Shown in pieces: positions 1,161 through 19,922 of a stretch of DNA of 64,000 nucleotides. The notes beneath the pieces are model-generated. The model worked only from the letters and a program-made list of their open reading frames with translations, searched no databases and was not told the origin of the DNA. Made by a program: the position numbers and the translations under genes. Every line of letters starts with the position of its first letter. Positions within the stretch are counted from its first letter, which is position 1. This DNA comes from an uncultured delta proteobacterium (GTDB lineage: Bacteria > Myxococcota > Myxococcia > Myxococcales > Myxococcaceae): assembly GCA_963796055.1 (NCBI GenBank), contig CAWCKH010000004.1:1184001-1248000 (forward strand), in the 5' to 3' direction.

Positions 1161-1973
1161 ATGGAACAGCGAAGGAACGTCCTCGTCACCGGCGCCTCGT
1201 CAGGGATCGGGGCCGCCATCGTCTCGCGGCTTGCCAGGGACGGCCACCGCGTCGTCGGGACCTGTCGGAAGGGCGATCTCAAGAACCCCGACGGAACGGA
1301 GATGCTCCCTCTGGACGTCACCTCCGATGACTCGGTCCGGGCCTGCGTCCAGGGATTCCTCGAACGGGAGGGGCGGATCGATGTCCTGATCAACAATGCC
1401 GGGTACCTCCAGGACGGTGCCATCGAGGAGGTCACGCTCGAGCAGGCCCGCGCGGAGTTCGAGACCAACTACTTCGGGGTGCTCCGGATGGTGCTCGCCG
1501 TCTTGCCCGCGATGCGCGCGCAGAAGAGCGGCCTCATCGCTGCCACCAGCTCCCTGGCTGGCCTCGTGCCGCTCCCGTTCTGGGGCCACTACAACGCGAG
1601 CAAGTTCGCCATCGAGGGCCTGATGGAGACACTGCGTCACGAGCTCAAGCCGTTCGGCATCCGAGTGGCTCTGGTGGAGCCCGGCGCGATCAAGACGCCC
1701 TTCTACCAGCGACCGCACGCCCCGGCGATGACCGAGTACGCTCGCTGGCGGGAACCCTTCTTCGATGCCATGCGGAATTTCGAGCGCAAGGCGCCCGGGC
1801 CGGAGGTCGCCGCCGACGTCTTCGCGCGCCTCCTGAGTCGCGAGCATCCGCCCCTTCACAACACCGTCACCCTCGAGGCAAAGCTGTTCCCGTTCCTCCG
1901 CTGGGTCCTCCCGCCGGGCATGTTCGAAGCCACCGTCCGGACCGGGTTCAAGCTCGACAAGTCGAGCGGGTGA
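1161..1973 (+). CDS. Classical SDR oxidoreductase
   Basis: TGASSGIG, NNAG, YNASK motifs; GGAG RBS before ATG 1161. Confidence 0.92.
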   Translation: MEQRRNVLVTGASSGIGAAIVSRLARDGHRVVGTCRKGDLKNPDGTEMLPLDVTSDDSVRACVQGFLEREGRIDVLINNAGYLQDGAIEEVTLEQARAEFETNYFGVLRMVLAVLPAMRAQKSGLIAATSSLAGLVPLPFWGHYNASKFAIEGLMETLRHELKPFGIRVALVEPGAIKTPFYQRPHAPAMTEYARWREPFFDAMRNFERKAPGPEVAADVFARLLSREHPPLHNTVTLEAKLFPFLRWVLPPGMFEATVRTGFKLDKSSG

Positions 1974-1993
1974 GCCGCCGCGGGGCGATCGGC

Positions 1994-3268
1994 TCATCGC
2001 CCTGTCGGAGGCACGAGCCTTCTCCGGTTCGCCGCCAGGCCGTAGAGCACCGAAGCGAGTGCCACGGTCGCCACCCAGAGGACGAGCGCGCCGACGAAGA
2101 ACAGGATGACCACACAGCCGACGAGGCTGACCCCGGCGAGCACCGCCGGAATTCCCTTGAGCAGTCGCACCGCGGCAGCCATCGACATCACGTACGTCGC
2201 GATGAAGGACGATGTCGAAAGAGGCAAGAGTGAGCTGATCCCGAGCTGGTACCGGTAAGCCAGGCCGATCGCGACGACACAGAGGGCGCCCACCACCAGG
2301 AGCGCCCGGTGCGGAACCCTCGTCTTCGGGTGGAGGGCGCCCGCCCAGAACGGCAGATCCCCTGCCTGTGCCAGGGCATAGACGAGCCGGCTCATTCCGG
2401 CGACGTACGCATTGAGCGGCAGGAAGGTGAGGACTCCACCGGCCAGGCCGATGATCGGGAGGGCTCTGGCGCCGAATGCCCTCGCTCCCATGAGCGCGAA
2501 GGGCGGCAACCCGGCCGAGATCACCGTGCCGTAGGCCCGCGTCCCGATGGTCACCACCGCGAGGGCGAGATAGAGGGCTGCCACCAGACCGACGCTGACG
2601 ACGCTGGCTCGCAGCAGGTCACGTTCCGGGTTCCGGAATTCCTCCGCCAGGGGGGTGATCGCCTCCCATCCCACGAAGGCCCAGAACAGCTGCGTGGCCG
2701 AAACTCCCACCGCCGACCATCCCATGGGCGCAAACGGGGTGAATGCGTCCCAGCGCACGCCGCGAGCCGCAGAGGCGAGTATCAGAATGACGAACCCCAG
2801 CACGCCTGCCGTGACGAGCCCCTGAACCGCTCCGGCGATGCGCAGCCCCAGCAGATTGAGCGCGAAGGCAGCGACGACCATGCTCCCGCCGATGAGGAAC
2901 ACTCCCTCGCGCCCCAGGCCGAACGGAGCGGCGAGGTACGAGCCGGCGATCAACCCGGCGACGACGGTTCCAGTCGGCACCTGAGCGAGGAAGAGCCACC
3001 CCGCCATCGCTCCCCACCGACGCCCAAAGGCGCGCTCGATGTACGCCGAAAATCCGCCGGCCACCGGCTCGCGCCTGGCAAGCGCGGCGAAGGTCAGCGC
3101 CAGCGGCAACGACAGCAGGCACAAGACCGCCCAGGCGACGATCGATGCCGGACCCGCCGTTTCCGCCGCGACCGCCGGGAGGACCAGGATTCCGGTCCCC
3201 AGCACCGCGCCGGTGTAGAGGGCCACCGCCGTCCGCAGACCAATGGTTCGTTCCAGCTCGACCTTCAT
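1994..3268 (-). CDS. APC-family amino acid permease
   Basis: GAVLGTGI, FWAFVGWE, EEFRNPERD motifs; many hydrophobic segments. Confidence 0.9.
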   Translation of the reverse strand: MKVELERTIGLRTAVALYTGAVLGTGILVLPAVAAETAGPASIVAWAVLCLLSLPLALTFAALARREPVAGGFSAYIERAFGRRWGAMAGWLFLAQVPTGTVVAGLIAGSYLAAPFGLGREGVFLIGGSMVVAAFALNLLGLRIAGAVQGLVTAGVLGFVILILASAARGVRWDAFTPFAPMGWSAVGVSATQLFWAFVGWEAITPLAEEFRNPERDLLRASVVSVGLVAALYLALAVVTIGTRAYGTVISAGLPPFALMGARAFGARALPIIGLAGGVLTFLPLNAYVAGMSRLVYALAQAGDLPFWAGALHPKTRVPHRALLVVGALCVVAIGLAYRYQLGISSLLPLSTSSFIATYVMSMAAAVRLLKGIPAVLAGVSLVGCVVILFFVGALVLWVATVALASVLYGLAANRRRLVPPTGR

Positions 3269-3363
3269 TGGACGCGTTGGTGTTACCGGCTCGGGTCCTC
3301 GAGTCCAGCCCGACTCGGGAATGGCACCGCGGTCGGACCCAGGCCCTGGCCGGGCCGGCATGC

Positions 3364-3518
3364 CGTTCCCGCCGCGCCAACCCCGCGAGAGCAGTGCCCA
3401 GGGGCGGAATCGAACCACCGACACGGGGATTTTCAGTCCCCGTCGTGGAATGGCCAAGTCCACGGACCGACAGAAGAAAGCGAGGCCGGTGAGCGGGCGT
3501 GCATCGCCGGTGCATCAG
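3364..3518. mobile_element. attP-like junction A: integrase-tail remnant + 47-bp tRNA-Phe 3' copy (3395-3441) + alternative int C-terminus + arm motif
   Basis: 3395-3441 is identical to 19776-19822; 25 of 31 nt to the left match the integrase 3' end; TGCATCGCCGGTGCATCAG at 3500-3518. Confidence 0.88.
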
Positions 3519-4071
3519 TCCTGAGTCAGAGTGGCCCAGCGCGCGGGTCGAAGCCCAGCAGATCCGCTCGTTCCAGATGGAGGCTCGAAGCCCGGGGTGA
3601 GCTGTGCCGTGACCTGCCCCACGAAAACTGGACCAGGTCGCCGTCGATGAAGCGAACCTGTTCGAAGGCCTGTTTGAAGGAGAGATCCGGTCTGCCGCTC
3701 GGACCGACACGGCCTCACGGCTTTCCGACTCGCGGCGGTGGACTCCACATGATGGCGTCCGATCGCCCGGCGCCAGCAGTCCCGTGGATTTTCGCCGGCG
3801 AAGCCCACTTCGGGCAGTTGGCACACCGGGTGCTCTGGAGGCTGCAAGATCCAACGTCGACCTTCGCTCCACCCGAGCGCGCTCACGGGTCGCGCCTTCC
3901 AGAAAGCCGATCGCTCCAGCAGGGCGGAAATGCTGAAGCCCTACCGGCCCTTACGCCCCGCAGGGCTGGGTGTTTCTGGGGGCCGAAACACCGGATGACC
4001 TCGCACGTCATTGATGCGAGCAAGAACAGACCGGGTCTTCGCGGAGGAGGCCCAGCAGGGGACGGGGTCCC

Positions 4072-6987
4072 GTGACAGCGACAGGCCTCGTCAGCAGGCT
4101 CTTTCTGGGCCTTCTGGCGACCGTTGCGACAGGTGTCGCAGCCCAGACCACAGAGCAGTCCCGCGCCTGGATCGGCGAAATGAAGGAGAGCCCGCGCGGT
4201 CCGTTCTCCGCCATCAGGTGGTACTGCAGGGACGGAACCGTGCTTCCGCCGGCCGAGTACGCCTGTGCCAACCATGGCGGGGGGTTCCAGCACGGCGAGT
4301 GGAGCGATCGCACCAAGCAGCTGCGCTCGCAGGGCTACAGGGTGGCGACGCTGCTCGCCGGCATCGACGCGGCAGAAGCGCTGGCTGCGCCCGACTTTCC
4401 CGACGCGTACGGCCAGCTACTGGTCGAGAAGTTCCTGCGACGGATCGACAACGGCTGGATCCTGCGCAGGGCGCTGTTCTATCGCGGCGCCCTGCAGGAG
4501 GAGGACGAGCGCGAAGGAGCGCGAAGTCTCTTGCAGGCAATGGCGGCGCGGCCGGAGTGGATCGGCTACCGTTTTGTCGCGCTGCGCACGGGCGTCCGCA
4601 TGCTGCCGCACGGTCTGGACGCTGCATCGGCGCAGAAGGTGCGGCAGATGGCGGCGGCGCTCTCGGAACGCGACGCTGGCTTCACGGTGCTGCGCGCCAA
4701 GATCCATGGCACACCGGAAGCCAGCGACGCCCTGCGCGTTCGCACCTATGCGGCTGCAGGAAGACCCGAACTGCGCGACAGCTATGAGGAGCTCGCAGCC
4801 GAGATCGATCGCGTCTATCAGCCGAAGCCGCTCGATCAGACGCTGGAAGCCGCGGCGCGAGCATTCAGCCACGAGCCGGCGATTCGGAAGTCGTTGAGCG
4901 ACGCACGGGCAACTTACCTGCGAGACACGGACGCCGTCAGCCGCTATCGCCTCACGGCCGACGTCCTGATGTCGCTCAGGCGCGGTCTGCCGACGATCAA
5001 GTCGGCGCGGGATCGCCTTCGTGCGCTTGACCTCTCCATTGCGGTCGAAGAGGAGAACCTGCGCCTGGGCAGCACGATTCGTACGGCCGTGGACAAGGCA
5101 CAGCGCGGAGGCGACGTGATCCTGATGCGTGCTGCCGCCGATGCCGCGTATGGCACCGGCCTGCTGAACGAGCGCGAGCGCAGCTCGCTTCAAGAGCCCT
5201 TCGAGACGCTGGGTGTCCCCGAGGTTTCGCTGCGCACCTACAAGAGCGTGCTGCGCTCTCTCGGCCTCGTCCCCGGCTGGGGCACCCAGCAGTTGCAGTT
5301 TCAGTTGGGCGAGGCGATGGCCAAGCTGGCAGAAATCGAGCCCAAGTCGGAACTCTTCGTCCAGGACCAGCTGCGTGGCAGTCCCCTGCTGTTCTATTCG
5401 CAGGTGCTCGACGCGCTGAACCACGACGCCAACGGGCTGGCCGGTGTTCGCAACACCGTGTTCGGGAGGGAAATCAGCGTCGGCTTCAACGCGCTGAACC
5501 CGGGCATTGCCCGTGGCGTGCTGCACACGAACCCGGACATGCAGCGTGCTGAGCAGTTTCGGCCGGATGGCATCTATGTGCTCCCGGAGACCATCGCGGA
5601 GTTGCCGCCGATCGCCGGCATCCTCACGGCCGGCGCCGGCAATCCGCTGTCGCACGTGCAGCTGCTCGCTCGCAACCTCGGGATTCCAAACGTCGCGGTC
5701 GATCAGCCAGTGCTCCCGATCCTTCAGCAGGCCAATGGTCGCCGCGCCGTGATGGCGGTGAGCTCTGGGGGGCTGGTCGAGATTGCGGACGACGGTCCGC
5801 AGTGGGACACCGTGTTTGGCACGGCGGAGCAGGCGGGGGCGAACCTGACGTTCGAGCCGGATCTGAACAAGCTCGATCTCTCGGTGCGCAACTTCGTGAG
5901 CCTCGACGCGCTGCGCGCCAAGGATTCGGGCCGCATCGTCGGGCCGAAGGCGGCAAAGCTCGGGGAGATCAAGGCCAGCTTCCCGGATCGGGTCGCGCCC
6001 GGTGTCGGTATCCCGTTCGGCCTTTATCGCGCGACCGTGCTCGACCGCCCGTACAAGAACTCCGGCAAGAGCGTATTCGAGTGGATGGTCCAGAGCTTTC
6101 GCAAGCTCGAGGCCATGCCGGCCGGCTCGAAGGAAGCTGCGGCTTTCGCCGAGCAGCTACGCGCCGAGATCTACTCGACGATCGTGAAAACTGATCCAGG
6201 AGCGCAGTTCCGCGAACAGTTGCGCGCGGCGATAGGCAAGGAGTTCGGCGCCGATTTCCGCGGCGGCGCGTTCATTCGTTCCGACACCAACGTCGAGGAC
6301 CTGCCGGGATTCACCGGGGCAGGACTCAACCTGACGCTCTTCAACGTCGTCGGCTTCGACAACATCGTGAAGGGCATCCTCGAGGTCTGGGCTTCGCCGT
6401 ATACGCAACGCGCCTGGGCCTGGCGCCAGGCGCACATGAAGGGGCCTGAGTACGTCTATCCGGCGGTGCTGCTGCTGCGTACGGTGCCCTCCGACATCTC
6501 GGGGGTGATGATCACGCAGGACGTCGAAAGCGGCGACCGCAACATCCTGTCGGTCGCGGTCAACGAAGGGGTCGGCGGTGCGGTCGACGGCCAAGCGGCC
6601 GAATCGGTTCGGATCGACAAGCGCGACGGTGGTGTTCGAGTGATGGCAGCCGCGACCGCGCCGCGTCGCATGATGCCGCAGGCGTCGGGCGGCGTCGCGA
6701 AGCTGGCGACCACGGGTGCCGAGACGCTGCTGAAGCCCGGCGAGGTCAAGCAATTGATCGACTTCTCCGACGACATCGACAAACGCTTCCAGCAGCGCGA
6801 CGAGCGTGGCCAGCCGACTGCGGCAGACGTGGAATTCGGCTTCGTCGACGGACGTCTCTGGCTGCTGCAGATCCGGCCGCTCAACGAGAGCCGGGAGGCG
6901 CAGGAGAGCGCGTATCTTGCGAAGATGAATCAGGCACTGGAAGAGAACCTGGATCGCATGGTGAACCTTCGCGAGCCCGTCAAGTGA
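4072..6987 (+). CDS. Exported PEP-utilizer/dikinase-like protein (phospho-His domain followed by C-terminal ATP-grasp PEP/pyruvate-binding domain)
   Basis: Signal-peptide-like N-terminus; GNPLSHVQLLARNLGIP; VGPKAAKL, RSDTNVEDLPGFTGAG, DVEFGF..LLQIRP. Confidence 0.85.
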   Translation: MTATGLVSRLFLGLLATVATGVAAQTTEQSRAWIGEMKESPRGPFSAIRWYCRDGTVLPPAEYACANHGGGFQHGEWSDRTKQLRSQGYRVATLLAGIDAAEALAAPDFPDAYGQLLVEKFLRRIDNGWILRRALFYRGALQEEDEREGARSLLQAMAARPEWIGYRFVALRTGVRMLPHGLDAASAQKVRQMAAALSERDAGFTVLRAKIHGTPEASDALRVRTYAAAGRPELRDSYEELAAEIDRVYQPKPLDQTLEAAARAFSHEPAIRKSLSDARATYLRDTDAVSRYRLTADVLMSLRRGLPTIKSARDRLRALDLSIAVEEENLRLGSTIRTAVDKAQRGGDVILMRAAADAAYGTGLLNERERSSLQEPFETLGVPEVSLRTYKSVLRSLGLVPGWGTQQLQFQLGEAMAKLAEIEPKSELFVQDQLRGSPLLFYSQVLDALNHDANGLAGVRNTVFGREISVGFNALNPGIARGVLHTNPDMQRAEQFRPDGIYVLPETIAELPPIAGILTAGAGNPLSHVQLLARNLGIPNVAVDQPVLPILQQANGRRAVMAVSSGGLVEIADDGPQWDTVFGTAEQAGANLTFEPDLNKLDLSVRNFVSLDALRAKDSGRIVGPKAAKLGEIKASFPDRVAPGVGIPFGLYRATVLDRPYKNSGKSVFEWMVQSFRKLEAMPAGSKEAAAFAEQLRAEIYSTIVKTDPGAQFREQLRAAIGKEFGADFRGGAFIRSDTNVEDLPGFTGAGLNLTLFNVVGFDNIVKGILEVWASPYTQRAWAWRQAHMKGPEYVYPAVLLLRTVPSDISGVMITQDVESGDRNILSVAVNEGVGGAVDGQAAESVRIDKRDGGVRVMAAATAPRRMMPQASGGVAKLATTGAETLLKPGEVKQLIDFSDDIDKRFQQRDERGQPTAADVEFGFVDGRLWLLQIRPLNESREAQESAYLAKMNQALEENLDRMVNLREPVK

Positions 6988-8266
6988 GCTCGATCTGCCC
7001 GACACATCGCCCGGCAGGCGCCGCACTGGCGCTTTCGGTAGCGCTGAGCATGTCCGCCGCCAATGCGTATCCGCTCGATGCCTATCCGGAGACGGGACTC
7101 CGCCGGCTCGAGGGTCTTCGCCTGGCCAATGAAGGAAAAGTCGCTGACGTCAAGCAACCCAAAGGAGCAATGCTGCCGCTGAAGGCCGTCGACCTCAGGC
7201 TCGTCGGCTCGACGTTCGATCTGCCGCCGTCCGACCCCGAGCTCGACAAGCAACTCGCCGGGATCCTCGGCGGCGGACTTGCCGGCTACGGAGTCGCCAT
7301 CCTGGATCTGCCGATCCAGCGGAACCGCACTACGCCGAGCACAACAGCACCTATCGCCAGAACGTCGGCAGCGTCGGGAAGGCAGTCGTGGCGCTCTCCC
7401 TGTTCCAGGCGCTCGCCGACACGTACCCCAACGACATCGCGGCCCGGCAGCACATTCTCAAGAACACGGTCGTGACTGCGGACGGCTTCTCGCAGCACGA
7501 CCACCATACCGTGCGCATGTTCAACGTCGAGACCGGGAGCCTCACCCGCCGTGCAATCCGGGTGGGTGACAGGGCCACCCTCTGGGAGTTCGTGGACTGG
7601 ATGATGTCGCCGAGCTCCAACTCCGCCGCTGGCATGGTGATGCGCGAGGCGATGCTGCTGCGGCAGTACGGCACCGCGTATCCGGTGCCCGAGGCCGAGG
7701 CCAGGCGCTTCTTCGGCCAGACTCCGAAGCCCGAACTGACCGCACTGCTGGAGAAGACCTTCTTCGAACCGGTCACGCGCAACGGGCTCGATCTGGAGCA
7801 ACTCAGGCAAGCCAGCTTCTTCACCGCGACCGGCAACCAGACCGTGCCGGGAGCGGGGAACAGCTATGGCACCGCACGAGAATTGATGCGCTACCTGCTT
7901 CACATGGAAGAGGGGCGCCTCGTCGACGAATGGTCGAGCCGCGAGATCAAGCGCCTGATGTATGTGACCGAGCGCCGCATCCGCTACGCCAGCGCGCGGT
8001 CACTCGCCAACGCGGCGGTCTACTTCAAGTCCGGTTCGCTCTACGAGTGCGCGCCGGAGCCCGGCTTCCGCTGTGGGCAGTACATGGGGAACGTGAAGAA
8101 CTACATGAACTCGATCGTGATCATCGAGTACCCGGCAGGTGAGCGAAAGCTCCATTACATGGTGACGCTCATCTCGAACGTACTGCGCAAGAATTCGGCG
8201 GCCGAGCACCAAGTCCTAGCGGGCAGAATCCAGCAAATGATTCTGGCGCGTCGAGCGAGCCGTTGA
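6984..8266 (+). CDS. Class A beta-lactamase-like serine hydrolase, exported; frameshift near 7310
   Basis: Joining ORFs 6984-7475 and 7388-8266 gives SVGK (SxxK), SSN and KSG; start overlaps the upstream stop (GTGA). Confidence 0.78.
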
Positions 8267-9187
8267 TCCGATCCCGACGCTGGAGAAGTTGGAGGCAACG
8301 TGTTCCCGCTCGGGCGGTACGATCAGATCGTGCATCGGGCCCGCAAGCCGGGCGAGCCATTCGCCGCCCTCGGCGTGTTCGGCGATGCCGACCAGCACGT
8401 AGCGCTTGCCGCGGCACTCCACCAGCGCGCTGTCCGCGTGCGTCTGCCTCCACGTCCCGGACTTGCGAAGAATCTCGACACCCGGTCGTCCCTTGAGGCC
8501 CTTGACGAAGTAGTGCTGAATCCCAGGCCTGGACAGAACCTGCCTCATCAATGCGTTCATCGGCGGGCTCAGCAGCTTGTCGGTCGCCAGCATCCAGTAC
8601 AGGCGCGCAACCTGGAAAGCCGTGGCGCCGTGCGAGAGGTTGTGCAGCGGGTCGCGCCGCGTGGCCGGCTCCGGCCCGTAGCCCTTGCCAACCCAGAGCC
8701 CGCCGGCACCTGCCCGATCATAGAGGGCAAAGCGCGAGGACTGCAGGATCTCCGCAAGGCGGTCGACGCCGACCCAGCGGAGCACGCGGCTCGCGTCCGC
8801 GTTGCTCGAGAACCGGATCATGCGGGTCATGGCGGCCACGGTCTCGCCGTTGATCGGCAGCCGACCGACCTCTGCTTCAGCCAAGGCGCCGAGGAGGATC
8901 GCCACCTTTGGCATGCTCGCCGCGTACATCATGCGGTCGCCGTTGAGCATGGCGAGGCGTGGCGCGGCCGGATCGGTCGCATCCACCAAGGCAAGGGCGA
9001 GGCGACCCTGTGCAACCTCGCCACTCAAGCCGGCATCGGCGACGACACGCTCCATCGCCGCCTGCAACTCGGAGTCCCGGGAGTCGCGCAGGCCCGCGAC
9101 GGTGGTTTCCGCAGAAGCCGACGCGGCGATGAGGGTCAGAGCGCAGACGGCGCAGTAGCGGGCGAACGGATTCCGGAGAAGCGACAT
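8216..9187 (-). CDS. Class A beta-lactamase-like serine hydrolase, exported
   Basis: Signal peptide; ASMPK, SSN, KSGTW motifs. Confidence 0.85.
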   Translation of the reverse strand: MSLLRNPFARYCAVCALTLIAASASAETTVAGLRDSRDSELQAAMERVVADAGLSGEVAQGRLALALVDATDPAAPRLAMLNGDRMMYAASMPKVAILLGALAEAEVGRLPINGETVAAMTRMIRFSSNADASRVLRWVGVDRLAEILQSSRFALYDRAGAGGLWVGKGYGPEPATRRDPLHNLSHGATAFQVARLYWMLATDKLLSPPMNALMRQVLSRPGIQHYFVKGLKGRPGVEILRKSGTWRQTHADSALVECRGKRYVLVGIAEHAEGGEWLARLAGPMHDLIVPPEREHVASNFSSVGIGSTARSTRQNHLLDSAR

Positions 9188-9444
9188 CGATCAGCGACCC
9201 AAAGCATGACGCTCACGAGAAGTCGAGCTGGGGCGGGACCGGAGGCGTGGGGCTGGACGGCCGCCACCGGCGGGCTCTGGGGGCTCTCGTACGAAGAGCT
9301 ACGGCAACTGCCTCCTGCCCGGCCCCGGGGCAGGAGCCGAGGTCCAGAAGGACGGCGAGCTCATCCTCGTCCGGGAGCTCCGTCATCCCGGGCGATTGCG
9401 TGGCAGGCGCTGACCGGTCCTGCGCGCCTGTCGGGAATGGGAAC

Positions 9445-9654
9445 TCACTTCATCAGGGCGAGCTCTTCCTGGGTGAAGCTCGGGTCCGGTCCCTCGAACG
9501 CGTCGGCCCGGATCTCACCCCACCGGTCGCGGCTCGGGGCGCGGGCGACTCTCTCCCGCTCCAGCTCCGAGCGGAAGAAGACGCGGGCGATGCGGGCGAG
9601 GAGGCCCGGGCGGCGCTCGAGATGGGATTGGGTGAGGACTTCCTGGGGGTACAT
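9445..9654 (-). CDS. Small hypothetical protein
   Basis: ATG with an AGGAG-like RBS directly after the TPR gene; plausible codon pattern. Confidence 0.35.
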   Translation of the reverse strand: MYPQEVLTQSHLERRPGLLARIARVFFRSELERERVARAPSRDRWGEIRADAFEGPDPSFTQEELALMK

Positions 9655-9680
9655 TCTGCTCTCCTTGGAAGAGGTCCTTC

Positions 9681-10738
9681 TCAGGGCTGCGGCGCCGGTA
9701 TGCCGTCGCCCGCGGGGGGCAAGAGACCGGCGGAGGACGCGGCGGCGGTCCTGAACGTCGGGGGCCGGCGCGTGACCTCCGTGCCCACGTCGGCTCGGAC
9801 ATCGGGCACGGCGGCGGCGGTGGCCGGGCCCTGCGCAACAGTCGACGCCGGCATGGCGGGCGGCGCCACGAGGCGGTGCGCGCGCGTGGTGAGACGCGCG
9901 TCCGCGCTCTCGGCGCCGGGCAGGGCCTGCTTGGCAGGCGAGATCTCGCGGGCGACGGTCGCGGCCTGCTCGCCCTTCCCGGTCTGCTCGTAGGCCTGGG
10001 CGAGCAAGCTCATCGCCACCTCGCGGTTCTTGCTCCCTCTGTCCTTTTCCAGGAAGGTCTTCAGGGGCGCGATGGCCGGCTCGTACTTGCGCTGCCGGAC
10101 GAGCGCGGCGCCCAGACGGAACGAGGCCTCGATCTGCTCGGACTCCGACGGCTCCATCGTCAGGGACCGCGAGAACTCGGCGGCGGCGGCGGCCCAGACC
10201 TTGGCGCGGAACGCTTCCTTGCCTCGCTCGAACGCCGCCTGCCCGAGCTCCCGCCGGAGCGCGGCGGCGCGGTCCGCGAGCGCCTGGCGCTCGAAGGGAT
10301 CAGCTTGCCCTGGTCCATCCTGGCGAGCGCGGTGACGCCCTCCAGCCGCCGTTCCCCCGGCAGATTGGTCATCATCCGGTACGCCTCGGCGGCAGAGCGG
10401 TGCGCGGCGGCGACGGCGGCCCGCTCCGCCCGGTCCTTGTCGACGGACCGGGTGAGCGCCTTCAGCTCGGCCACCGCCTTGTCCCGCTCGCTGTCGGCGG
10501 CGGCGGTGCGAGCGCCCGACAGGAACAGGGCTGCGCCTCCGGCGAGCAGCGCGAACATCGCGTACGCCGCGGCCGAGGAGAGCGTCTGCCGGTGCTCGAA
10601 CGCCTTCTGCCTCGCCCCGAACGCCCTCATCTGGGCGTGAAACGTCTTCAGGAGGTTGTCGGTGCGGATGACGAGGTTCCGCCCCTCGATCACCTCACGG
10701 CGGAGGTCCGCCAGCTCTTGTTCCAGCTCCGTCCTCAA
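9681..10738 (-). CDS. Coiled-coil/TM/TPR protein; frameshift near 10290
   Basis: ORF 10160-10738 (coiled coil + TM) joins 9681-10157 (TPR-like ASFRLGAALVRQRKYEPA). Confidence 0.65.
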
Positions 10739-10812
10739 CGTGTCCTCCCATCCAGCTCACTCGGCAATCGAACGGACCACCTCGGACCTCGGGTCTGTAG
10801 GGGTTCGTCTCC

Positions 10813-11040
10813 TCACCCGCGTTCATGTTTCGCCCGACAGGTGGCGAAACACTTGCCCGCACGAAGTCTCCGCTCCTTTCGCCGGCCCCACCTTTCGGTG
10901 ATGTCCCGGAGCATCCCCACCAGGATCACGAGGAAGAGGGCAGCGCCGATCAGCGCCACGGCCCATCTCGAGGAGTAGCGGTCGAGCTCGGTCGCGTCCA
11001 CGGTCAGGCAGTGCCTCGGCTTGGATGTGAGGAGCTCCAT
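10813..11040 (-). CDS. Small single-TM hypothetical protein
   Basis: MELLTSK...WAVALIGAALFLVILVGML hydrophobic stretch. Confidence 0.3.
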   Translation of the reverse strand: MELLTSKPRHCLTVDATELDRYSSRWAVALIGAALFLVILVGMLRDITERWGRRKERRLRAGKCFATCRAKHERG

Positions 11041-11922
11041 CGCTGGTCGGCTCGAGGCCTTTCGACGACCACGTCGATCCAGCCCAGCAGTTGCTCCAGA
11101 ACCTCCTGGCGGTTGATCTCGTTGAGCATCTCGTGGCGTCCGCCCTGGTAGAAGTCGTAGGAGATGTCGTCGATTCCCGCCCGGCGGTAGCGCTCGATGA
11201 GGAGCACCAGCCCCCGGAGCTGCTGACCCACGGGATCCTCGCTGCCCGAGAACAGGTAGATGGGGAGGTCCCTGCGGATGCGTTGAAGTCTCACGGCGTC
11301 CGACACCCGCGGCGCAGCGCCCAGGAACGACGCGAGGGACGCCGGCCGAAGCGCCGCGAAGCACAGCGGATCGCCGACGAATGCATCCACCACGTCGGGA
11401 TCGCGACTCAGCCAGTCGAACGGGGTCCGCGCCGGCTCGAAAGGGGCGTTGAGGACGTTGACTCCGTGCGCAGCGGAGCTTGCCAGCCGGACGAGTCCGT
11501 CAAGAACGCCCGAGCCGGAGAGTACCAGCGCATCGATCATCCCGCTGTGCTCGAGGACAAACTGCTGGGCTGCGAAGGAGCCCATGCTGTGTCCGAGCAG
11601 GATGAATGGAAGGTCGGGGTCTCGCTCCTGTGCGATCTGGCTCAACCGCACCATGTCCTCCACCAGGAGGTCGAATCCGCCCGTTCCGAGATCGCCGACG
11701 TACCCGGCGGATGGAGCGGTCCGGCCGTGACCACGATGATCGCTGCCGTAGACGGTCAAACCGCTGGACACCAGCGCGTCGATGGTGGCGCGGTACCGAC
11801 CGATGTGCTCGCCCATCCCGTGGGCAATCTGGACCACGCCGCGCTGTGGACCGCGCGCATCCCAGCGGAAGCAGGCGATGCGCAATCCATCCGAGCTGGT
11901 GAATCGGAACTGCGGGTTCCAT
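11004..11922 (-). CDS. Alpha/beta hydrolase (lysophospholipase-like); extra base just after the start
   Basis: HGMGEH, DHRGHG, GHSMG, GSEDPV, RHEMLNE motifs. Confidence 0.88.
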
Positions 11923-11935
11923 GACCCGGTTCTCC

Positions 11936-11951
11936 AGCACTTGGCATGCCA
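11936..11951 (-). promoter_or_regulatory. Putative sigma54 -24/-12 promoter of the hydrolase
   Basis: TGGCATGCCAAGTGCT (GG-N10-GC) on the minus strand. Confidence 0.5.
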
Positions 11952-12213
11952 GCCCGGGTGGCGTGTCGCGTGCGGAAACGACACCACTGACAGGAGCTGG
12001 TGCCCGTGTCGACACGAGCTGCAGTGCCGTCGAGACCGTGACGGGTGCTCCGACCGCCGAAGTTCGGACGGGACTGTCGGCCCCTGCACCCTGACCAGAC
12101 AGAAACCCGGCATTTCGTCGAGCACTCGCTGGGTGAAACATCGCGACGTTTCGCGATCCAAACGAGTGGATGGGCTCCGGTGATCCGGGGCTCCAGGCAC
12201 GGGAGACGGTCAG

Positions 12214-12833
12214 ATGGGCAGGGCAGTGGGGCTGGTGGTGGGCTCCTCGGCGCGGGCGCGCTCGGGGACGGCGTGGCGGGCGGAACGGAAGGAGAGAAGC
12301 AGCCGCTGCTGGCCGCCGCCGGGACCGAGAGTCACCTCGAGCCCGTTTACGCCGGGACGTATGTCTACGCCGGAAGCGAGGCGGAACGCGCCGCGGTGAA
12401 GGCCGCCGTGAACCGGGCCACCGAGGGAATGTTCGGAAAGGTCATCGCTCGCGAGGAACTGATGCAGCGTTCCGAGATCCGCCCGAGCTACACCATCCGC
12501 CTGGACTCCCCGGGGAGGGTGAGCGTCGAGACCCCCGGGTTCCCCCCGGAATCCTCACCTCTCGACGGGACGGAGGTGGAGCTCCGCACCAAGTACGGCG
12601 ACGTGGTCAAGAACAGCCAGCAGTTCGTCTCCGGCTCGCTCCTCCAGGAAGGTCACACCCCCGACGGGAGCGGCTCGACGGAGTTCAAGCTGCTGGCCGA
12701 CGGGAACACGCTACGGGTCACCCGCGTCAGCAGGAGTCCGAGACTGCCCAGGGCGGTCGAGTACCCCGGACCTACGTCCGCAGCAGGCCACGCGCTGAGG
12801 CGAGCCCGGCGCTCGACTGCGGCCTCGCCCTGA
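12214..12833 (+). CDS. Exported hypothetical protein, frameshifted near both ends
   Basis: Coherent beta-rich central frame (YAGTYVYAGSEAERAAV...TLRVTRV); hydrophobic N-terminus lies in another frame. Confidence 0.55.
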
Positions 12834-12889
12834 GGCGAGCGTCTCCGGTCGCCCCGGTCGCGGTCCTCGACGAGACGATGCGAGCCACG

Positions 12890-13157
12890 CCGCCCCTTCG
12901 CCTCGAGTGCCGCCCGATGACCTGGAGAGCCTTGACCGTCGCCGCCCGGCCTTCCGGGTCATCTCGTAGCGCGCTCCCACCTTCCGGAGCGCCCCGAGCA
13001 GGACCAGGCGGTCCACCGTGGCGACGGCCACCGCATCGTCGAAGGCCGGCCCTTCGACGAGCCTCAGCGCGCGACGGGCGATCATCGACTTCTCGAGCGG
13101 CTCCTCGAGGACGGCCGTCAGAACGGCGAGATCTTGCAGTGACAGAGGCGTTCGCAT
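12890..13157 (-). CDS. Small winged-helix-like protein, frameshifted
   Basis: LSLQDLAVL...VDRLVLLGAL...YEMTRK resembles a PadR/MarR wing; end is approximate. Confidence 0.4.
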
Positions 13158-13218
13158 TTCCCATTGGAGACGGATGGCGGTCTCTTGTTTCAGCTGGTGA
13201 CGGCCCGGCCGATGTTCC

Positions 13219-13680
13219 CTTCCGGGTGTTGCGTCCGGGCGCGCGCTTCTCCGGGTACGACTGGTGCCTCCTCGACTCGTTCAATCCCGCGGACCGGACC
13301 ACGTGCGGATCAAGAAGGGCATCGAGCAGGGCAACGGGATGGCCGAGCTCCGTCCGGCCTCCGACGTGCTCGACTCTCTGCTCGACGCGGGATTCGAGGT
13401 GGAGGCGTGCGGTGACTGGGCGGCCACGGCACACCCGCGCTCGCCGTGGTACGGACCTCTCACCAGCGGCCTCTCACTGACTGGCTTCAGGAACAGTCGC
13501 GCCGGCGCGTTCCTCTCTCGCCAGCTGATCCGGGTGCTGGAGGCGCTCCGGCTCGCCCCTCGCGGAACGCTGATGGTCCACGACGTGCTGCGACTCGCGC
13601 AATGGTCCCTGGTGGACGCCGGGCGTCGGGGCATCTTCACTGCCAGCTTCTTCTGGCTGGCGCGAAAGCCTGGGGGATGA
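13219..13680 (+). pseudogene. C-terminal fragment of a sterol C-24 methyltransferase (ERG6/SMT-like)
   Basis: FRVLRPGARFSGYDWCL, IKKGIEQGNG, PWYGPL, LEALRLAPRG, GIFT...ARKP; SAM-binding N-half absent; frameshift near 13297. Confidence 0.75.
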
Positions 13681-13890
13681 CCGCCGCTGGATGTGAAGGC
13701 GCGCTGACGGTCGTGTCCCAAGTCCAGCTGGAGCACGCCCCGAAGCATCGAAGCGTGCCTCGCAATTGGCCACCGCCACTGGGCACCCGGCTGCCTAACG
13801 GTACGGATAGCCGAAGCGGGTGAATTCGTACGTATTCCCCGATGGCGGCGTTCCGGCGAAACAAGCGGCCGGGACGAACCACCCAGGAGC

Positions 13891-14640
13891 ATGCCGTACA
13901 ACGGCACTCCGGCGCACGGAAGCAAGGTCCCGCACGTCACGCTCGCGTCTGGGCGGCGAAGATCCTGGCCACCACTGTGGGCGAGACAGCGGGTGACGCG
14001 CTCTCGATGACCCTGAATCTCGGGTACGCCATGAGCTCGGTCGTCTTCATCGCGCTCTTCGTGGTCGCGGTCTGGGCCCAGGTGCGCGCGCGGCGCTTGC
14101 ACCCGCTGCTCTACTGGACGGTGATCGTCGCCACGACCACCGCCGGCACGACCATGGCCGACTTCGCCGACCGCTCGCTGGGCATCGGCTATGTCGGTGG
14201 CTCGCTGCTCCTCTTTGTGCTCGTCCTGCTCGTCCTCCTCGCCTGGTGGCGAACGGAGGGAAGCGTCTCGGTGGACGGCATTCGCCGACCGCGCGTGGAG
14301 GTCTTCTACTGGGCGACCATCCTCGCCTCGAACACGCTCGGAACCGCGCTCGGCGACCTTCCTGGCCGACGACTCCGGGCTCGGCTACCGCGGCGGCGCG
14401 CTGGTGTTCTGCGCCGCACTCGCCCTCGTGGCGGTCGTCTGGCGCTTCACGTACGTCTCGCGCAGCCTGGTGTTCTGGGCAGCCTTCATCCTTACCCGAC
14501 CGCTGGGGGCGACCCTTGGCGACATCCTCACCAAGCCCACCTCCACCGGCGGGCTGAACCTCGGAAGGTTCGGCTCCTCGGCGGTGCTCCTGGTCTGCAT
14601 GGTCGCGTGCGTGCTCCTCACCTCGCAGCGGTACGGCGGC
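13891..14640 (+). CDS. COG4705/DUF347 membrane protein, two frameshifts (~13948, ~14357)
   Basis: KVPHVT.., KILATTVGETAGD, TTAGTTMAD, NTLGTALGD, FILTRPLGATLGD; end is approximate. Confidence 0.82.
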
Positions 14641-14749
14641 GAAGCGCGGCGCGATGTACGGAAGAAGGGGTCCCTTGAACGGGTGAGGCTTTCGCCAGCG
14701 AAACCCCTCCGCCCAGGAGCCGAGGACGCGCATGGCGCTGCTCACCTCC

Positions 14750-14901
14750 CATCAAACAGCGTGGATTCCGAAAACAATGCCCAGGGGCGAAATCGAACCA
14801 CCGACACGGGGAGTTTCAGTCCCCGTCGTGGAGTGGCCAAGCCCTCGAACGGCCTCCAGAAGACGAAGGAGCTGAACTGGACTGCATCGCCGGTGCATCA
14901 G
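14750..14901. mobile_element. attP-like junction B (right end of module 2, left end of the integrase-bearing module)
   Basis: 14778-14824 matches the tRNA-Phe 3' part with 2 mismatches; CATCAAACAGCGTGGATTC matches the int 3' end; arm motif at 14883-14901. Confidence 0.88.
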
Positions 14902-15013
14902 CTACCGAGCGCGCGACCCGAGGGCGAACGGCCGCGTCGAGTCCGGGCCGGTCCTGCCCGCGGCCGACGGCGGGGCGACCACCTGGACGGCCCGTCCCCA
15001 GCGCGAGACGCCG

Positions 15014-17280
15014 CTACCGCGCGGGAGGGTTGCGCCGGGCCAGCGCCCTGTCGATGGCAGCGCGTAGCAGGTGGGGCGGCTCCCCACCGCTGTGGACCTC
15101 GCCGTCGATCACCAGCGAGGGCGGCTTCACCCCCAGGGCGCGGGCCTGCTTGAGCTGCTCGACCTCCGCGCCACCAATGCCAGTCACCATCACGTAGTCG
15201 AACAACCCCAAATCCGCGCCGATCTGCCGCGCATACCGGCGCAGCACTGCTGGAGACGGGATCTCCGGCGGCGGCCAGGTGAAGTCGTCGCGGCGCTGGT
15301 TCGCCAGGACCAGGTCGTGCAGTTCCCAGAAGCGGGGACCCACGCCGGCCACTGCTCGGGCGAGCCGGGCCCCCTCCGGCTGGTGAAGCTCGGACACGTC
15401 CCACTAGACGAGACGAAGCTCGTCGCCGTAGCTGGCCAGATCGTGTGGAACACCGGCTCCATCAAGGCGCAAAAGTAGCTGACGAGTCGCATGAAGAAGG
15501 ACGGGGAGTGCCGTGCGAGGAGGGCCGCCTCGCGAAGGTCGCGACCCTGGGTCGGGCAGCGCTACCCGCGGCCGATCCTCGCCGTGCTCGCGCGCGCCTC
15601 GCTCGAATTCCTCATAGAAGTGGAGAGCCTGCTCACCCAAGCCGAGCCGGCGCCGGGCCTCGGCCAGCTCGTCAGCAACGACCTGCTCGAGCTCGGCGCC
15701 GTCGTCAGTCATGACCTTCCGCCGGTGAGAAGAAGCCGAGGATGCCCGGAGGCCCACGGGGCGGAGAGGTTGCCCTCGACGACTTGCCGGCCGAGGGGTG
15801 CTCCGTCGAGCGCCGCCAGACCGCCTCCGGCTCGAGCGCAGCGCGCGGGCTTGCTTGATCAGCCGGGTCGGTTCGAGCAGCGGTGAGGCGGCGAAGAGCA
15901 GATCATGGGCACGCCAGAAGGCGGCCGAACCCCGCTGCAGCGCGACCTCCCGGGCGACCTGCGCCGCCCCGTCGGCGTAGCGGTGGACACTCACGGGGTA
16001 GTCCTTCCAGACCAGCCGCAGCTTCTGTGGAAACCGATCGAACAGGCGCCTGAGCCTCGCCTCCGCGGCTTTCGAGTAAGGGCAGTGGAAATCTGCGAAC
16101 TCGATGATGGTCACGGCGGCTTCGGCGGGGCCCCGAGAGGGAGAGTTTCCGATCGGGCCAAGCCAGCGCTCGAAGGGCCCGCGAGCCGGGCCCGGAGACG
16201 TCGGGAGCAACGGCCGAGGCGGCTCGAGGCCGGCGCTGAACGCCCAACTACCCGCCGCGCCAGACCGTGCGTGCTCCGACAGCCGCGAGCCCGAGCACCA
16301 GCACCAGGGCAAGCGCGGCGCCGAGCACCGCGAGGCGAGTGGCCAAAGAGCGCGAGGTCCGGAGAACAATCGGCCGTGCCTTGACGGAGGTCGGGGCGGT
16401 GGCCGCCCCGAGGTCGAAGGCGAGGTCGGCCGCGGACTGAAAACGGCGGGCTGGCTCCTTTTCCAGGCATCGCCGCACCAGCAAATCGACCGAGGGGGGA
16501 ACTGACTCCGGAAGGGGAGGAGGCTCGGATTCCAGGATGGCGTGCCCGCTCTCGATGAAGCTCTTGCCGGGGAACGCGGGGGCGCCGGCCAGCATCTCGT
16601 AGAGCACCGTGCCAAGGCTGAAAATGTCCGTCCGGGCGTCCACGGGGTCGCCGCGTACCTGCTCGGGGGACATGAACGCTGGTGTTCCGAGCACAGCGCC
16701 GGGCCGGGTCCCGAGGCCTTCTGGGGTGAGCGTGGTGTCGAGGAGGTTCCTGGTCCCCTCGATGCCCCTCGGCGCGGTCAGCTTCGCGATGCCGAAGTCG
16801 AGCAGCTTGGCTCGACCACCCGAGGTGAGGAATACGTTCTCCGGTTTCACGTCCCGGTGGACGACGCCGCGCGCAAGACAGCCGCCAGGCCCTCGCCAAG
16901 CGGAGCGCCGAGCTCAAGCGACCTGCTCGACGGCGGACGACAAGGACGACGATGACAGTGACCCGCCCTCAGGCCGGTGCCACCAGGAAAGGAGCGCCGC
17001 CTTCGGAGCCGACGTCGTGCACGACGACCAGGTTGGGATGGTTCAACGAGCCGGCGAGACGGGCCTCCTGCTCGAAGCGTTGAAGGCGCTCGGGGTCGAG
17101 CGCCGCCCCATCGGAGATGACCTTGAGGGCTACCTCCGACCCATCGGGTGTCGAGGGCGCGATACACGTCGACGGCTCCCCCCGGTCGGAGGACAGCGAG
17201 AACTTCAGGACCGACTCGCACCCCAGCTCTAAGCCGCAGGCCCAACCTCCGTCGCGGCAACGCCAACCACCGAGCGGCAT
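15014..17280 (-). pseudogene. Ser/Thr protein kinase-TM-DsbA/thioredoxin fusion, multiply frameshifted
   Basis: VALKV, RFEQEARLAGSLNHPNL, HRDVKPEN, DFGIAK, GTPAFMSPEQ, TM, EFADFHCPYS, FWRAHDLLF; second Trx-like domain (FWELHDLV). Confidence 0.75.
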
Positions 17281-17709
17281 CTTCGCCGATCTGAAGATGG
17301 CGAGGAATTCGCCTTGCTCTCGGGCTCTCCGCACCGGGGCGCAGCACCTCATCCTCCCCGCTCGCCTTTCTCCGCCGCCTCGCCGCTCTCGTCCCCCCAC
17401 CCCGGGTCAACCTCGTCCGGTACTCGGCGTCTTCGCCCCCAATGCCCGACTCCGCCCCCGCCTCCGGCGGCCCTGACCGACGACGCTCCTCCTTCCCACC
17501 CCCAACGCCGGCTCACCCCAGAGGGCCTGGCTGACCTGCCAATGGCCCTCCAATGCGCCCGCAAACGCGCCCGAGAATGCGCTCCCGGATCGGGCGTATT
17601 TCCGAGCTCTTTCCAGGGCACGAACCAGGGCCGATTCGAGGCTCCGTTCTCCAGGACTCTCAGCACTTGCGCCCTCGCCCATCCCATTGTGCGCGCGGCA
17701 GCAAGCGCA

Positions 17710-17775
17710 CCCCCGAGATTCCCGCTCACGCCCTCACAACCACATGACTGAGGGCGTGAGCGGGAATCTCGGGGG
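17710..17775. repeat. Perfect 27-bp inverted repeat with a 12-nt loop
   Basis: CCCCCGAGATTCCCGCTCACGCCCTCA (17710-17736) / TGAGGGCGTGAGCGGGAATCTCGGGGG (17749-17775). Confidence 0.95.
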
Positions 17776-18065
17776 GTACGGACAAGACTGGGTGGGGCGG
17801 GCGAGGGGATCGAGGGGATCAGGTGAGGAGGAGGTAGTGAGAAAGTTCCTGAGGCAAGGAAGCGAGTGGTGAGGAAGCGGGTACGAGGACGGTACGGACC
17901 GGAGAACCGAGGAGCGGCGTCGCGGCTCGAGGTGGAAGCCCAGAGGTGTGTGTCAAGACGTTTGGACGCAAAAGAGCTCTTGGGGCTTCGAGAGAACGGA
18001 GCGAGGCGCGTGCTTGGTGTTGCCGAGATGGACCTCAAACAGGCTGTTTTGGTACTATGTTGGAG

Positions 18066-18380
18066 ATGCAGCGGAGCCAAAGCCAGGACACCAACACGAC
18101 CCGCGTCTCGGTCTACCTGAAGAACTTCCTTGTCGACTGGTGCGACCAGCGCGCCGAGCAGCTCGGGGAGAGTCGACAGGCTGCGGTTGTCGAGGCTGTC
18201 CGCGACCACTGGAATCTCTACGGCCTGCCGGCCCACCTGGAGGAGGTCCTCCTCGCCGAGAAGAAGGCCAAGGGCTACGACAACCGGACCTACCTCCGCT
18301 ACGTCGTGGCGCTCCATGCCCAGGCCCTCTTCGATCGCCGGCAGGCGAGCGAACCCGCCAAGTCACCCCGAAGGAAGTAG
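18066..18380 (+). CDS. Ribbon-helix-helix-like DNA-binding protein
   Basis: TRVSVYL strand then helices (RAEQLGESRQAAVVEAVR); GGAG RBS. Confidence 0.6.
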   Translation: MQRSQSQDTNTTRVSVYLKNFLVDWCDQRAEQLGESRQAAVVEAVRDHWNLYGLPAHLEEVLLAEKKAKGYDNRTYLRYVVALHAQALFDRRQASEPAKSPRRK

Positions 18381-18386
18381 GCCCTG

Positions 18387-18827
18387 ATGACCGACCGCGA
18401 GCAGGACTTCGAGCAGCAGCTCGGGCCGCACTGGCGGATGAAGATCTCTCGGGAGCGGGAGATTTACGCCGAGCCGATGCTCGACGCGGAGAACATCCGC
18501 CGTGAGTTCGGCTGCTCGCGATCGAAGGCCTACGAGCACCTCCACGCCGCTCTCGCGCACTTCGGAATCGTCCCGGAGGCTGGCAAGCAGCTCCGGATCC
18601 GGTGGAGCATCTGGCAGCGGTACAAGCAATCGAGAATCCCATGGGCAAGGGTAGATATCGGCTCACCAGGCGCGGCCTGGTCTGGTACGCGCACGTCTAC
18701 GAGAACGGGGCACGGAGGCAGATCTCCACCCGTTGCACCGACCTCAAGGCGGCCGAGCTTGCGCTCCGACAGCTCGAGCGGGACAGCGCCGATCCGGCCC
18801 ACGCTGCCGCGAAGAAGGCCTCGCTGA
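18387..18827 (+). CDS. HTH excisionase/RDF-like protein overlapping the int 5' end
   Basis: MLDAENIRREFGCSRSKAYEHL HTH-like segment; position upstream of and overlapping int. Confidence 0.6.
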   Translation: MTDREQDFEQQLGPHWRMKISREREIYAEPMLDAENIRREFGCSRSKAYEHLHAALAHFGIVPEAGKQLRIRWSIWQRYKQSRIPWARVDIGSPGAAWSGTRTSTRTGHGGRSPPVAPTSRRPSLRSDSSSGTAPIRPTLPRRRPR

Positions 18828-19837
18828 GCGACGCGCTCGCTCTGCTCCTCGAGCGCCGCACGGAAGAGGCGACCGCCGGCCGGCGCAGCCCGGAGACGGT
18901 GGCGTTCTACCGGCGCAAGGCCGGCCACCTGACCCGCATCTTCGAGCACCTGGACGACGGCAAGTACGAGCCGTTCATTCTCACCCACCTGAGAGCAGCA
19001 GACGTCGACCACTACATCTCGCTCCGGCGCTCGGAAGCGGTGAGCGACCACACCATCGCCAAGGAGCTGGTGACTCTTCGAGCCTCTCTCAAGCTCGCCA
19101 AGCGCGCGGGGCTGTGGCTCGGCGACATCGATGCACTCTTGCCGGTCGGCTTTGCTCCGGATTATCGGCCACGAACCCGTGCCCTCTCGACCGAGGAGCT
19201 CGGGCAACTGCTGGCCCTCCTGCCGTCAGCCCGAGCGGCGCAGGTGGGCTTCATCGTCGCGACCTCCGCGTGCTGGAGCGAAGCGGTGAAGGCTCGCCGA
19301 GGCGACGTTCAGCTCGATTCCGGCTGGGTCCACATCCGCGGCACCAAGCGGGCTGCCAGAGATCGGCACATCCTCGTCCGACACCCAACTCTCGTGAGCC
19401 TGCTCGCGTACGCGCTCAAGCACGCTCCTGGCGAGGACCTGCTCTTCCCGCCCTGGAGCAACGTCCGCCGCGATCTCCTCATCGCCTGCGAGCAGGCCGG
19501 CATCGAGCCCTGCTCTCCGAACGACCTGCGCCGCACCTACGCCAAGTGGATGCGACTCGCACGAGTCCCGGCTGAAATTGTTGCTCCAACCATGGGCCAC
19601 CGCGACACGCGCATGGTCGAGCGCGTCTATGGCCGCCTGTCGCCTGAGGAAATCGGTGCGCTGCTGACCGCCCACTTCGCTCCGGACTGCATCGCCGGTG
19701 CATCAGACAGCGTGGATTCGGCCGGAAAACGTGGACGAAATGGACGTTCGCGTCGCGCCAAGCCAGCGAAAACAGTGCCCAGGGGCGGAATCGAACCACC
19801 GACACGGGGATTTTCAGTCCCCTGCTCTACCAACTGA
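18641..19837 (+). CDS. int: Tyrosine recombinase/integrase; C-terminus encoded by the tRNA antisense strand
   Basis: GTKR, SPNDLRRT, MGHRDTRMVERVY; N-terminal arm-binding-like segment. Confidence 0.92.
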   Translation: MGKGRYRLTRRGLVWYAHVYENGARRQISTRCTDLKAAELALRQLERDSADPAHAAAKKASLSDALALLLERRTEEATAGRRSPETVAFYRRKAGHLTRIFEHLDDGKYEPFILTHLRAADVDHYISLRRSEAVSDHTIAKELVTLRASLKLAKRAGLWLGDIDALLPVGFAPDYRPRTRALSTEELGQLLALLPSARAAQVGFIVATSACWSEAVKARRGDVQLDSGWVHIRGTKRAARDRHILVRHPTLVSLLAYALKHAPGEDLLFPPWSNVRRDLLIACEQAGIEPCSPNDLRRTYAKWMRLARVPAEIVAPTMGHRDTRMVERVYGRLSPEEIGALLTAHFAPDCIAGASDSVDSAGKRGRNGRSRRAKPAKTVPRGGIEPPTRGFSVPCSTN

Positions 19838-19848
19838 GCTACCTGGGC
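19776..19848 (-). tRNA. tRNA-Phe (GAA), CCA not encoded
   Basis: GCCCAGGTAGCTCAGTTGGTAGAGCAGGGGACTGAAAATCCCCGTGTCGGTGGTTCGATTCCGCCCCTGGGCA folds as a cloverleaf. Confidence 0.97.
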
Positions 19849-19893
19849 GAACAACGCCCCCGCGCCGCGAGCGGCCGCACGCGAGGGCGCGCA

Positions 19894-19922
19894 GGAATAG
19901 GACGCGCCTTCCCGGCAGTCAA
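19894..19922 (-). promoter_or_regulatory. Putative sigma70 promoter of tRNA-Phe
   Basis: TTGACT-N17-TATTCC on the minus strand. Confidence 0.6.

Follow-up and report, generated by a model that had tools for sequence, protein, structure and literature searches.

How did one tRNA-Phe gene in a myxobacterial genome come to be followed by two further copies of its 3′ part, each beside a remnant of an integrase gene, and which of the DNA blocks between these copies may still move? The question is raised by a stretch of 64,000 nt (here called the window, whose numbering is used throughout) from an uncultured delta proteobacterium of the Myxococcaceae (assembly GCA_963796055.1, contig CAWCKH010000004.1:1,184,001-1,248,000, forward strand). 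The answer that we regard as quite probable is that decayed integrating elements were stacked serially at tRNA-Phe and that the two internal junctions, A and B, are the fossils of this process.

The tRNA-Phe target and its partial copies

The target gene and the three copies of the attachment core are the following:

19775..19848, reverse strand: tRNA-Phe(GAA), the target gene on the attL side (ARAGORN)
19776..19822: att core of 47 bp, equal to the tRNA 3′ part up to the anticodon stem (repeat search)
14778..14824: core copy B, with two changes corresponding to tRNA C61U (14790) and A38C (14813, anticodon loop)
3395..3441: core copy A, the same as the tRNA (assembly search and alignment)

Among 59 tRNA calls in the whole assembly tRNA-Phe(GAA) was found once, and the full-length core occurs in it only at the tRNA, at 3395 (identical) and at 14778 (two mismatches), which confirms the recurrence described in an earlier, sequence-only reading. 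The locus thus combines what is expected of an accretion array, i.e. an intact target gene, co-oriented 3′ fragments downstream of it, an integrase beside the target and integrase remnants in the older members. As the identity of secondary core copies and of those in distant relatives stops at the anticodon loop, the crossover is probably located there (19811-19817). An Rfam scan returned the tRNA only, besides two miRNA-family matches far under the cut-off on a hairpin element described below. The copies delimit module 1 (14825-19775, between B and tRNA-Phe, with the sole complete integrase gene, int, of the locus), module 2 (3442-14777, between A and B) and module 3 to the left of A.

Two observations concern the surroundings of tRNA genes. 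Six tandem 83-nt repeats lie just upstream of tRNA-Phe (19922-20405), with related units scattered over the genome like a REP/BIME-type family, and nine tRNA calls are found within 2.5 kb elsewhere in this genome (G000:C4:3118970-3121462), possibly a tRNA array of mobile origin.

Junctions A and B

The flanks of the cores contain these parts:

19688..19704, forward strand: left arm, two TGCATC direct repeats inside int, 88 bp from the core
14825..14899, forward strand: right side of B, with the int 3′ end (14825-14875, 16 codons and stop) and the right arm repeat (14883-14899)
14750..14777, forward strand: left side of B, where 19 nt + 9 nt remain of the collapsed left arm of an older element
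3442..3516, forward strand: right side of A, with the int 3′ end (3442-3492) and the right arm repeat (3500-3516)
3364..3394, forward strand: int remnant at A, 31 nt without arm repeat (alignment)

That a remnant of the int 3′ end stands left of each copy was seen correctly before: 25 of 31 nt match at A, and at B the remnant is collapsed by an internal deletion. The former statement that both junctions carry both arms does not hold. The motif TGCATC-N5-TGCATC is located 88 bp to the left of the tRNA core and 58 bp to the right of the core at A and B; at the left-arm position A and B show 7 mismatches in 12 positions each. Just 31 nt of spacer are retained at A, and B retains 5 nt of one repeat, brought to the core by the internal deletion. 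The 19-mer left of B occurs twice and the arm motif three times in the window, each in none of 100 shuffles. With no left arm repeat at A and a collapsed one at B, both are attR-like and not attP-like junctions. Repeat symmetry, conservation and a three-strand/helix N-terminal domain in the integrase model suggest that the arm repeats are putative binding sites of the integrase.

Across the loci compared, none of seven chimeric junctions has the exact left arm, as against 14 of 24 junctions next to the tRNA (p 0.009); if one mismatch is allowed the counts are 1/7 and 16/24 (p 0.03), with two mismatches 2/7 and 16/24 (p 0.10). As the loci are related, the seven chimeric junctions were picked by their int-derived left flank, and junctions with less than 92 nt of left flank as well as exact duplicates were excluded, this asymmetry is to be read as a trend only.

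An attachment site inside the integrase gene

The integrase gene does not end before the core:

18641..19837, forward strand: tyrosine integrase (PF00589), 398 aa when integrated, its frame crossing the core into the antisense tRNA

If this frame is continued from the core into the right segment of either A or B, it yields VVEWPSPR, a basic stretch and a stop, so that the protein is 410 aa long with A as well as with B. Of nine junctions in relatives, eight lead to this length and have their arm repeat at 58 bp from the core. In 15 distinct right segments the differences within codons 1-8 number 4, 1 and 27 at codon positions 1, 2 and 3, and the stop stands at codon 17 in 13 of them. The right-hand segment is thus the protein-coding 3′ end of int plus one arm. 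The sequence-only reading had recognized the 77-nt right segments as homologous (58/77 nt match) and their arm motif, and had missed their coding nature. From the frame through the core and the coding right segment it follows that attP lies inside int, with the order left arm, 47-bp core, last 16 int codons and right arm. Integration would restore the tRNA and exchange the integrase tail for a tRNA-encoded one, and the true tail would be left behind at attR.

Among the 120 listed of at least 394 homologues, 79 possess a tRNA-encoded tail, 23 another tail after the core (12 of these with WPxPR) and 18 no recognizable core frame; the WPxPR tail is kept only in the attP form of this integrase family. 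In this genome the integrase frames at tRNA-His, -Phe, -Pro, -Arg (C5) and tmRNA all run into or through their targets. An int frame that crosses the core and tails that differ between the attP and the integrated form are as outlined for Mx8/Mx9 and SSV-type elements, with attP inside int and a new C-terminus upon integration (PMC6070905, PMC4383910); in contrast with those, no phage genes are present here and the Box I arginine is absent. Intragenic attP sites are also allowed for in Islander, which lists 125 tandems.

The N-terminus of the integrase model (pLDDT 87) comprises strands at residues 8-11, 14-21 and 24-29 and a helix at 35-50, and its fold matches include lambda Int and Tn1549 Int. 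Together with PF00589 this three-strand/helix domain is the architecture of a tyrosine recombinase with an arm-binding domain. At the Box I position, as assigned by sequence alignment, arginine occurs in only one of the 120 listed homologues (of at least 394) and cysteine in 61 and here, while the His-II position is Asn. Conserved in the family are K236, R297, H320, Y330 and also R240 and R242. Hence the canonical R-K-H-R-H-Y active site seems to be absent, and R240 and R242 are candidate substitutes for the Box I arginine. In Cre most changes at this arginine are described to abolish nearly all activity. A precedent is given by IntCTnDOT and IntDes, in which the first catalytic arginine is shifted or absent according to PMC8138268; the integrase described here belongs to a different family. 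Because Box I lacks its arginine, the case for activity of the enzyme rests on the circular contig discussed below. A sequence search of the PDB gave no match, and phage records included none covering 80% of Int (all 19 matches below 60% identity, no myxophage). Viral contigs gave no match to the hairpin or the core-arm junction and one distant integrase, and a plasmid search gave three weak matches only.

Module 1 and its hairpin element

Between B and int, module 1 contains:

18387..18827, forward strand: small ORF before int, Xis-like by position only, its first 91 aa 79-93% identical in the family
18060..18380, forward strand: conserved 106-aa protein, a probable DNA-binding regulator
17541..17810: non-coding nested inverted repeats (hairpin element) with a 27-bp perfect stem at 17710-17775
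14902..17540, reverse strand: cargo, a Ser/Thr kinase-DsbA-like gene that is nearly duplicated in the tRNA-Pro island

The small ORF has no Pfam match and one weak PHROG match of unknown function. For the 106-aa protein a ribbon-helix-helix fold is a lead only: it comes from one Atlas set (rank 20, score 0.90), and the protein model, of low confidence and without beta strand, does not support it.

The hairpin element (folding z -9.3) is found in nine copies in this genome and is common to elements with different integrases; five of the copies immediately precede the small-gene/int cluster in elements that occupy different targets. It is present in 5 of 12 congeners and in none of 28 more distant genomes. 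Among 21 related copies 5 of 30 pairs show two-sided changes, and the 11 named records with the hairpin are labelled Myxococcaceae (7), delta proteobacterium (3) and Thermoanaerobaculaceae (1). It is a candidate transfer origin, packaging signal or structured RNA. Five relaxase/Rep_trans families gave no match in the genome, Terminase_6N is absent from it, and neither the Pfam matches of module 1 nor 14 ORFs scanned from the circular contig include the replication or packaging genes by which phage satellites and tycheposons are recognized. Our best guess for the route between cells is an oriT-only element.

The stretch 14809-17793 is nearly copied inside the tRNA-Pro island, the copy reaching from the anticodon stem-loop of the Phe core to the hairpin. 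It could have arisen if an element first integrated at a secondary site and hairpins then recombined with each other, and we regard the near-copy as a second sign of recent movement. Within it, at 15378-17215, 7 of 10 patches in which the window and the tRNA-Pro copy diverge can be aligned, in the same order, to 540 bp of a multi-copy insertion sequence (G000:C4:1657966-1658507), which we take to be IS1182-like; the tRNA-Pro copy and shuffles lack this match, and contigs of the runs X1 and X6 carry the letters of the tRNA-Pro copy at 15378-17215. This region is a garbled mixed consensus, an artefact of assembly or polishing that perhaps hides a real insertion. For this reason it is uncertain how large module 1 is and whether its kinase gene is really broken.

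Could the whole row then be an assembly chimera, built from islands of co-occurring strains or from the tRNA-Pro copy? The interleaved insertion sequence pieces, the near-duplication at the tRNA-Pro island and the fact that no run contains half the words of 13000-20000 would fit this. No public contig spans A or B, and since the contigs from runs belong to other strains they speak neither for nor against the order. Against it, the remnant left of B is an allele found in other genomes (G007, L142) and is absent from the tRNA of this genome, the right segments of A and B differ at 19 of 77 nt, and independent assemblies contain junctions of like types. A chimera is therefore very improbable in our view, and A and B look biological given that the remnant at B is an allele of other genomes.

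Modules 2 and 3

The two outer modules are represented in the window by:

3517..14749: cargo of module 2, with PPDK-like, two beta-lactamase-fold, TPR protein, hydrolase, methyltransferase fragment and DUF347, no integrase
1..3394: right end of module 3, which continues leftwards beyond the window for about 27.7 kb, as far as a shared GNAT gene
922..1027, forward strand: second int remnant (79% nt identity over 76 bp, 65% aa identity over 31 residues), 2.3 kb from the remnant at A

Module 2 has a patchwork structure. The block at 4072-9187 (the PPDK-like and the two beta-lactamase-fold proteins) is seen in 3 of 12 congeners, and the five cargo loci compared showed no tRNA, core or arm. A pattern of matches at 12330-12800 had been considered as a second garbled patch and was rejected, as paralogues and relatives explain it.

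Module 3 measures about 31 kb in all and carries a PKS cluster (L003:4505-19946, left of the window) with a type I PKS of 2778 aa, a fused biotin carboxylase/carboxyltransferase of 1752 aa and an acyl-CoA dehydrogenase. The search for further junctions or a true attR left of A, recommended by the earlier reading, found none: neither a core search of the whole assembly nor 14-mers with one mismatch revealed a core or arm at the far end of the module. Parts of module 3 (region L002:13086-20000) are 80-90% identical to DNA beside a tRNA-Met island (G000:C4:3644851-3648282), which may be a further sign of cargo exchange between islands.

The tRNA-Phe locus in related genomes

In 10 of 12 congeners tRNA-Phe was located in the assembly. 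Two or more cores on one contig are present in four of the 12 (three in G007, two each in G004, G006 and G001), each with different cargo, so the comparison across related genomes that had been advised shows stacking with variable content. A full-length match to the integrase is seen only in G004; elsewhere the match is truncated, has an internal deletion or stops at a contig end. From the backbone GNAT gene to the tRNA the distance is 2.1 kb in G005 as compared to 47.5 kb here, and what lies between backbone and tRNA varies among relatives. No module of this locus recurs at the tRNA-Phe contig of a relative. Several genomes possess, at the tRNA itself, an int-like flank of just 9-51 nt or a collapsed arm, and a subsequent insertion would turn such states into fixed junctions of the A and B type. 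The endpoints of the int deletions differ at each junction, which rules out a programmed deletion of old integrases.

A clean empty tRNA-Phe site was seen in none of the 10 congeners with the gene, and for this reason the 9-10 nt that adjoin the core on its left could be host sequence. All 10 genes keep at least 9 nt of flank, none with an unrelated empty site, and this would suit a different account, in which A is the true attR of one composite island, its 31 nt are host tRNA trailer copied into attP and module 3 is no module at all. We consider this very improbable, because accessory DNA extends left of A up to the GNAT gene, 27.7 kb beyond the edge of the window, and includes a further int remnant at 922-1027; none of the 12 congeners contains the PKS cluster, and in G003 core and arm adjoin the GNAT gene itself.

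The preferred reading, serial stacking at tRNA-Phe, can be described stepwise. The family would consist of minimal elements of 5-13 kb that target tRNA-Phe and contain hairpin, 106-aa protein, Xis-like ORF, tyrosine integrase and variable cargo. A resident element would decay by deletions from the int side, so that the gene is lost and the left arm disrupted. In this way the tRNA end would again be a plain target, at which the next element inserts and pushes the older remains outwards. A and B would accordingly be composed of an old remnant, the core and the attR half of the newer element. Serial integration into one tRNA with loss of the older integrases, as proposed originally, is thus supported by the relatives and by the published accretion model.

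Rows are not restricted to tRNA-Phe in this genome: three 3′ copies lie downstream of tRNA-His and two downstream of tRNA-Pro, so three tRNAs bear rows. Those at tRNA-Pro (L152; G000:C4:1659706-1671850) and tRNA-His (L153/L154; G000:C4:4900-31621) are of like design, and in the tRNA-Pro row the arm repeat left of the internal junction is degenerate too.

A probable circular form and predicted mobility

Among 31 metagenome loci, one contig of 12,771 bp from another sample, represented by its two ends L140 and L120, continues from its end into its start within int and holds left arm, core and right segment in one piece without a tRNA. It also contains the hairpin and both small genes (82% identity to 17544-19624). 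The same int module is found integrated at tRNA-Phe in another locus (L115, 100% over 1,952 bp). The contig is best read as an excised circle with full attP, i.e. excision occurs; it could instead be a head-to-tail tandem, as known for SGI1. Its cargo encodes a TonB-dependent receptor, MbnP and a di-haem cytochrome c peroxidase, likely a copper-uptake module. A sequence labelled Thermoanaerobaculaceae (L112:1-7279) is 99.99% identical to the circle over 7,279 bp, which reflects either cross-phylum transfer or misbinning.

For the locus itself, excision from the tRNA to A (16,381 bp) would restore a perfect tRNA and should be viable. Excision from the tRNA to B (4,998 bp) would damage the only tRNA-Phe found and appears disfavoured, since B differs in the anticodon loop (A38C) and in the T stem (C61U). 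The tRNA pair 53-61 is a nearly invariant G-C, and a gene regenerated from B would have G53-U61. Most tyrosine recombinases are described as requiring identity in the overlap region. Excision of module 2 alone, from A to B, is unlikely owing to the missing left arm, and module 3 should be fixed as it has no attR. Re-entry would take place at the tRNA, so the order of modules would be kept.

Integrons also consist of one integrase beside a row of cargo blocks, and this likeness stands behind the former proposal of an integron-like array, in which the proximal integrase excises modules singly and reinserts them beside the tRNA in reshuffled order. It agrees with the single complete int of the locus, with the right arm and int tail kept at A, B and 16 of 17 distal junctions, and with an internal junction of G004 whose left arm has one mismatch. 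In contrast with integrons, we noted here neither attC-like sites nor promoterless single-gene cassettes nor evidence of reshuffling. An intact left arm is present at neither A nor B, module 3 has no distal att site, the deletion endpoints vary at every junction, none of the loci compared had module 2 or 3 next to a core or arm, and the modules are multi-gene patchworks of 5-31 kb. The geometry permits only nested co-excision back into the tRNA site and no reshuffling of single cassettes. An integron-like array is thus very improbable, and nested cis-mobilisation is the mobility to be expected.

Relation to known systems

The accretion model outlined in PMC5704250 comprises three steps and chimeric internal sites, and describes CIMEs among ICESt1-related elements and the composite IME_Sag2603_tRNAlys. 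The row resembles these in integration, decay and re-integration at a restored target, in its chimeric sites and in the expected excision of the proximal element or the whole composite, and modules 2 and 3 lack a complete int as CIMEs do. CIMEs keep both attL and attR, whereas module 2 has an attR at A but a collapsed left arm at B and module 3 has no attR; furthermore, the proximal element here is without conjugation genes.

Islands at ssrA of Dehalococcoides are, according to PMC3146451, likewise tandem and bounded by 3′ copies of the target gene, with an integrase overlapping attP/attL, and 15 of them have no integration module; their enzyme is a serine recombinase acting at tmRNA, in contrast with the tyrosine integrase at tRNA-Phe. 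The tycheposons of Prochlorococcus, as presented in 10.1101/2020.12.28.424599, are small cargo elements at tRNAs with older ones pushed outwards, fragmented integrases and partial tRNAs, but in the elements described here no primase, helicase, capsid or terminase gene was seen. The iOriT islands of 10.64898/2026.01.13.699239 are integrative and have no relaxase, and a cis site shared across unrelated integrases would fit them; however, no nick site, helper or relaxase was identified here and the hairpin is only a candidate. The array is thus a case of a known accretion process. A literature search, mainly outside subscription papers and supplements, found no description of the myxobacterial element family, and both family and integrase look unstudied. 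Less ordinary are the switch of the integrase tail, the missing arginine and the shared hairpin.

Biological meaning

The array adds a myxobacterial example of known island growth and illustrates how elements of 5-13 kb can build up an island of 47 kb that includes a PKS cluster, and it gives testable predictions on the blocks that are still mobile. A wider proposal can be formulated, which in its entirety we hold to be conceivable and rather unlikely. According to it these are distinct minimal hitchhiking elements of soil myxobacteria, whose non-canonical integrase without the first catalytic arginine would be switched by the target, the WPxPR tail being restricted to attP and needed for integration. 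The hairpin would be a transfer or packaging signal for an outside helper and also the recombination point by which cargo moves between tRNA specificities, as in the Phe and Pro islands, and the broken left arm would stabilize the stack. The integrase family, with at least 394 proteins, would be well suited to studying how a target-encoded tail controls direction and how catalysis proceeds when the Box I arginine is missing, and is a possible integration tool for myxobacteria, and the hairpin could point to a transfer route of a new sort.
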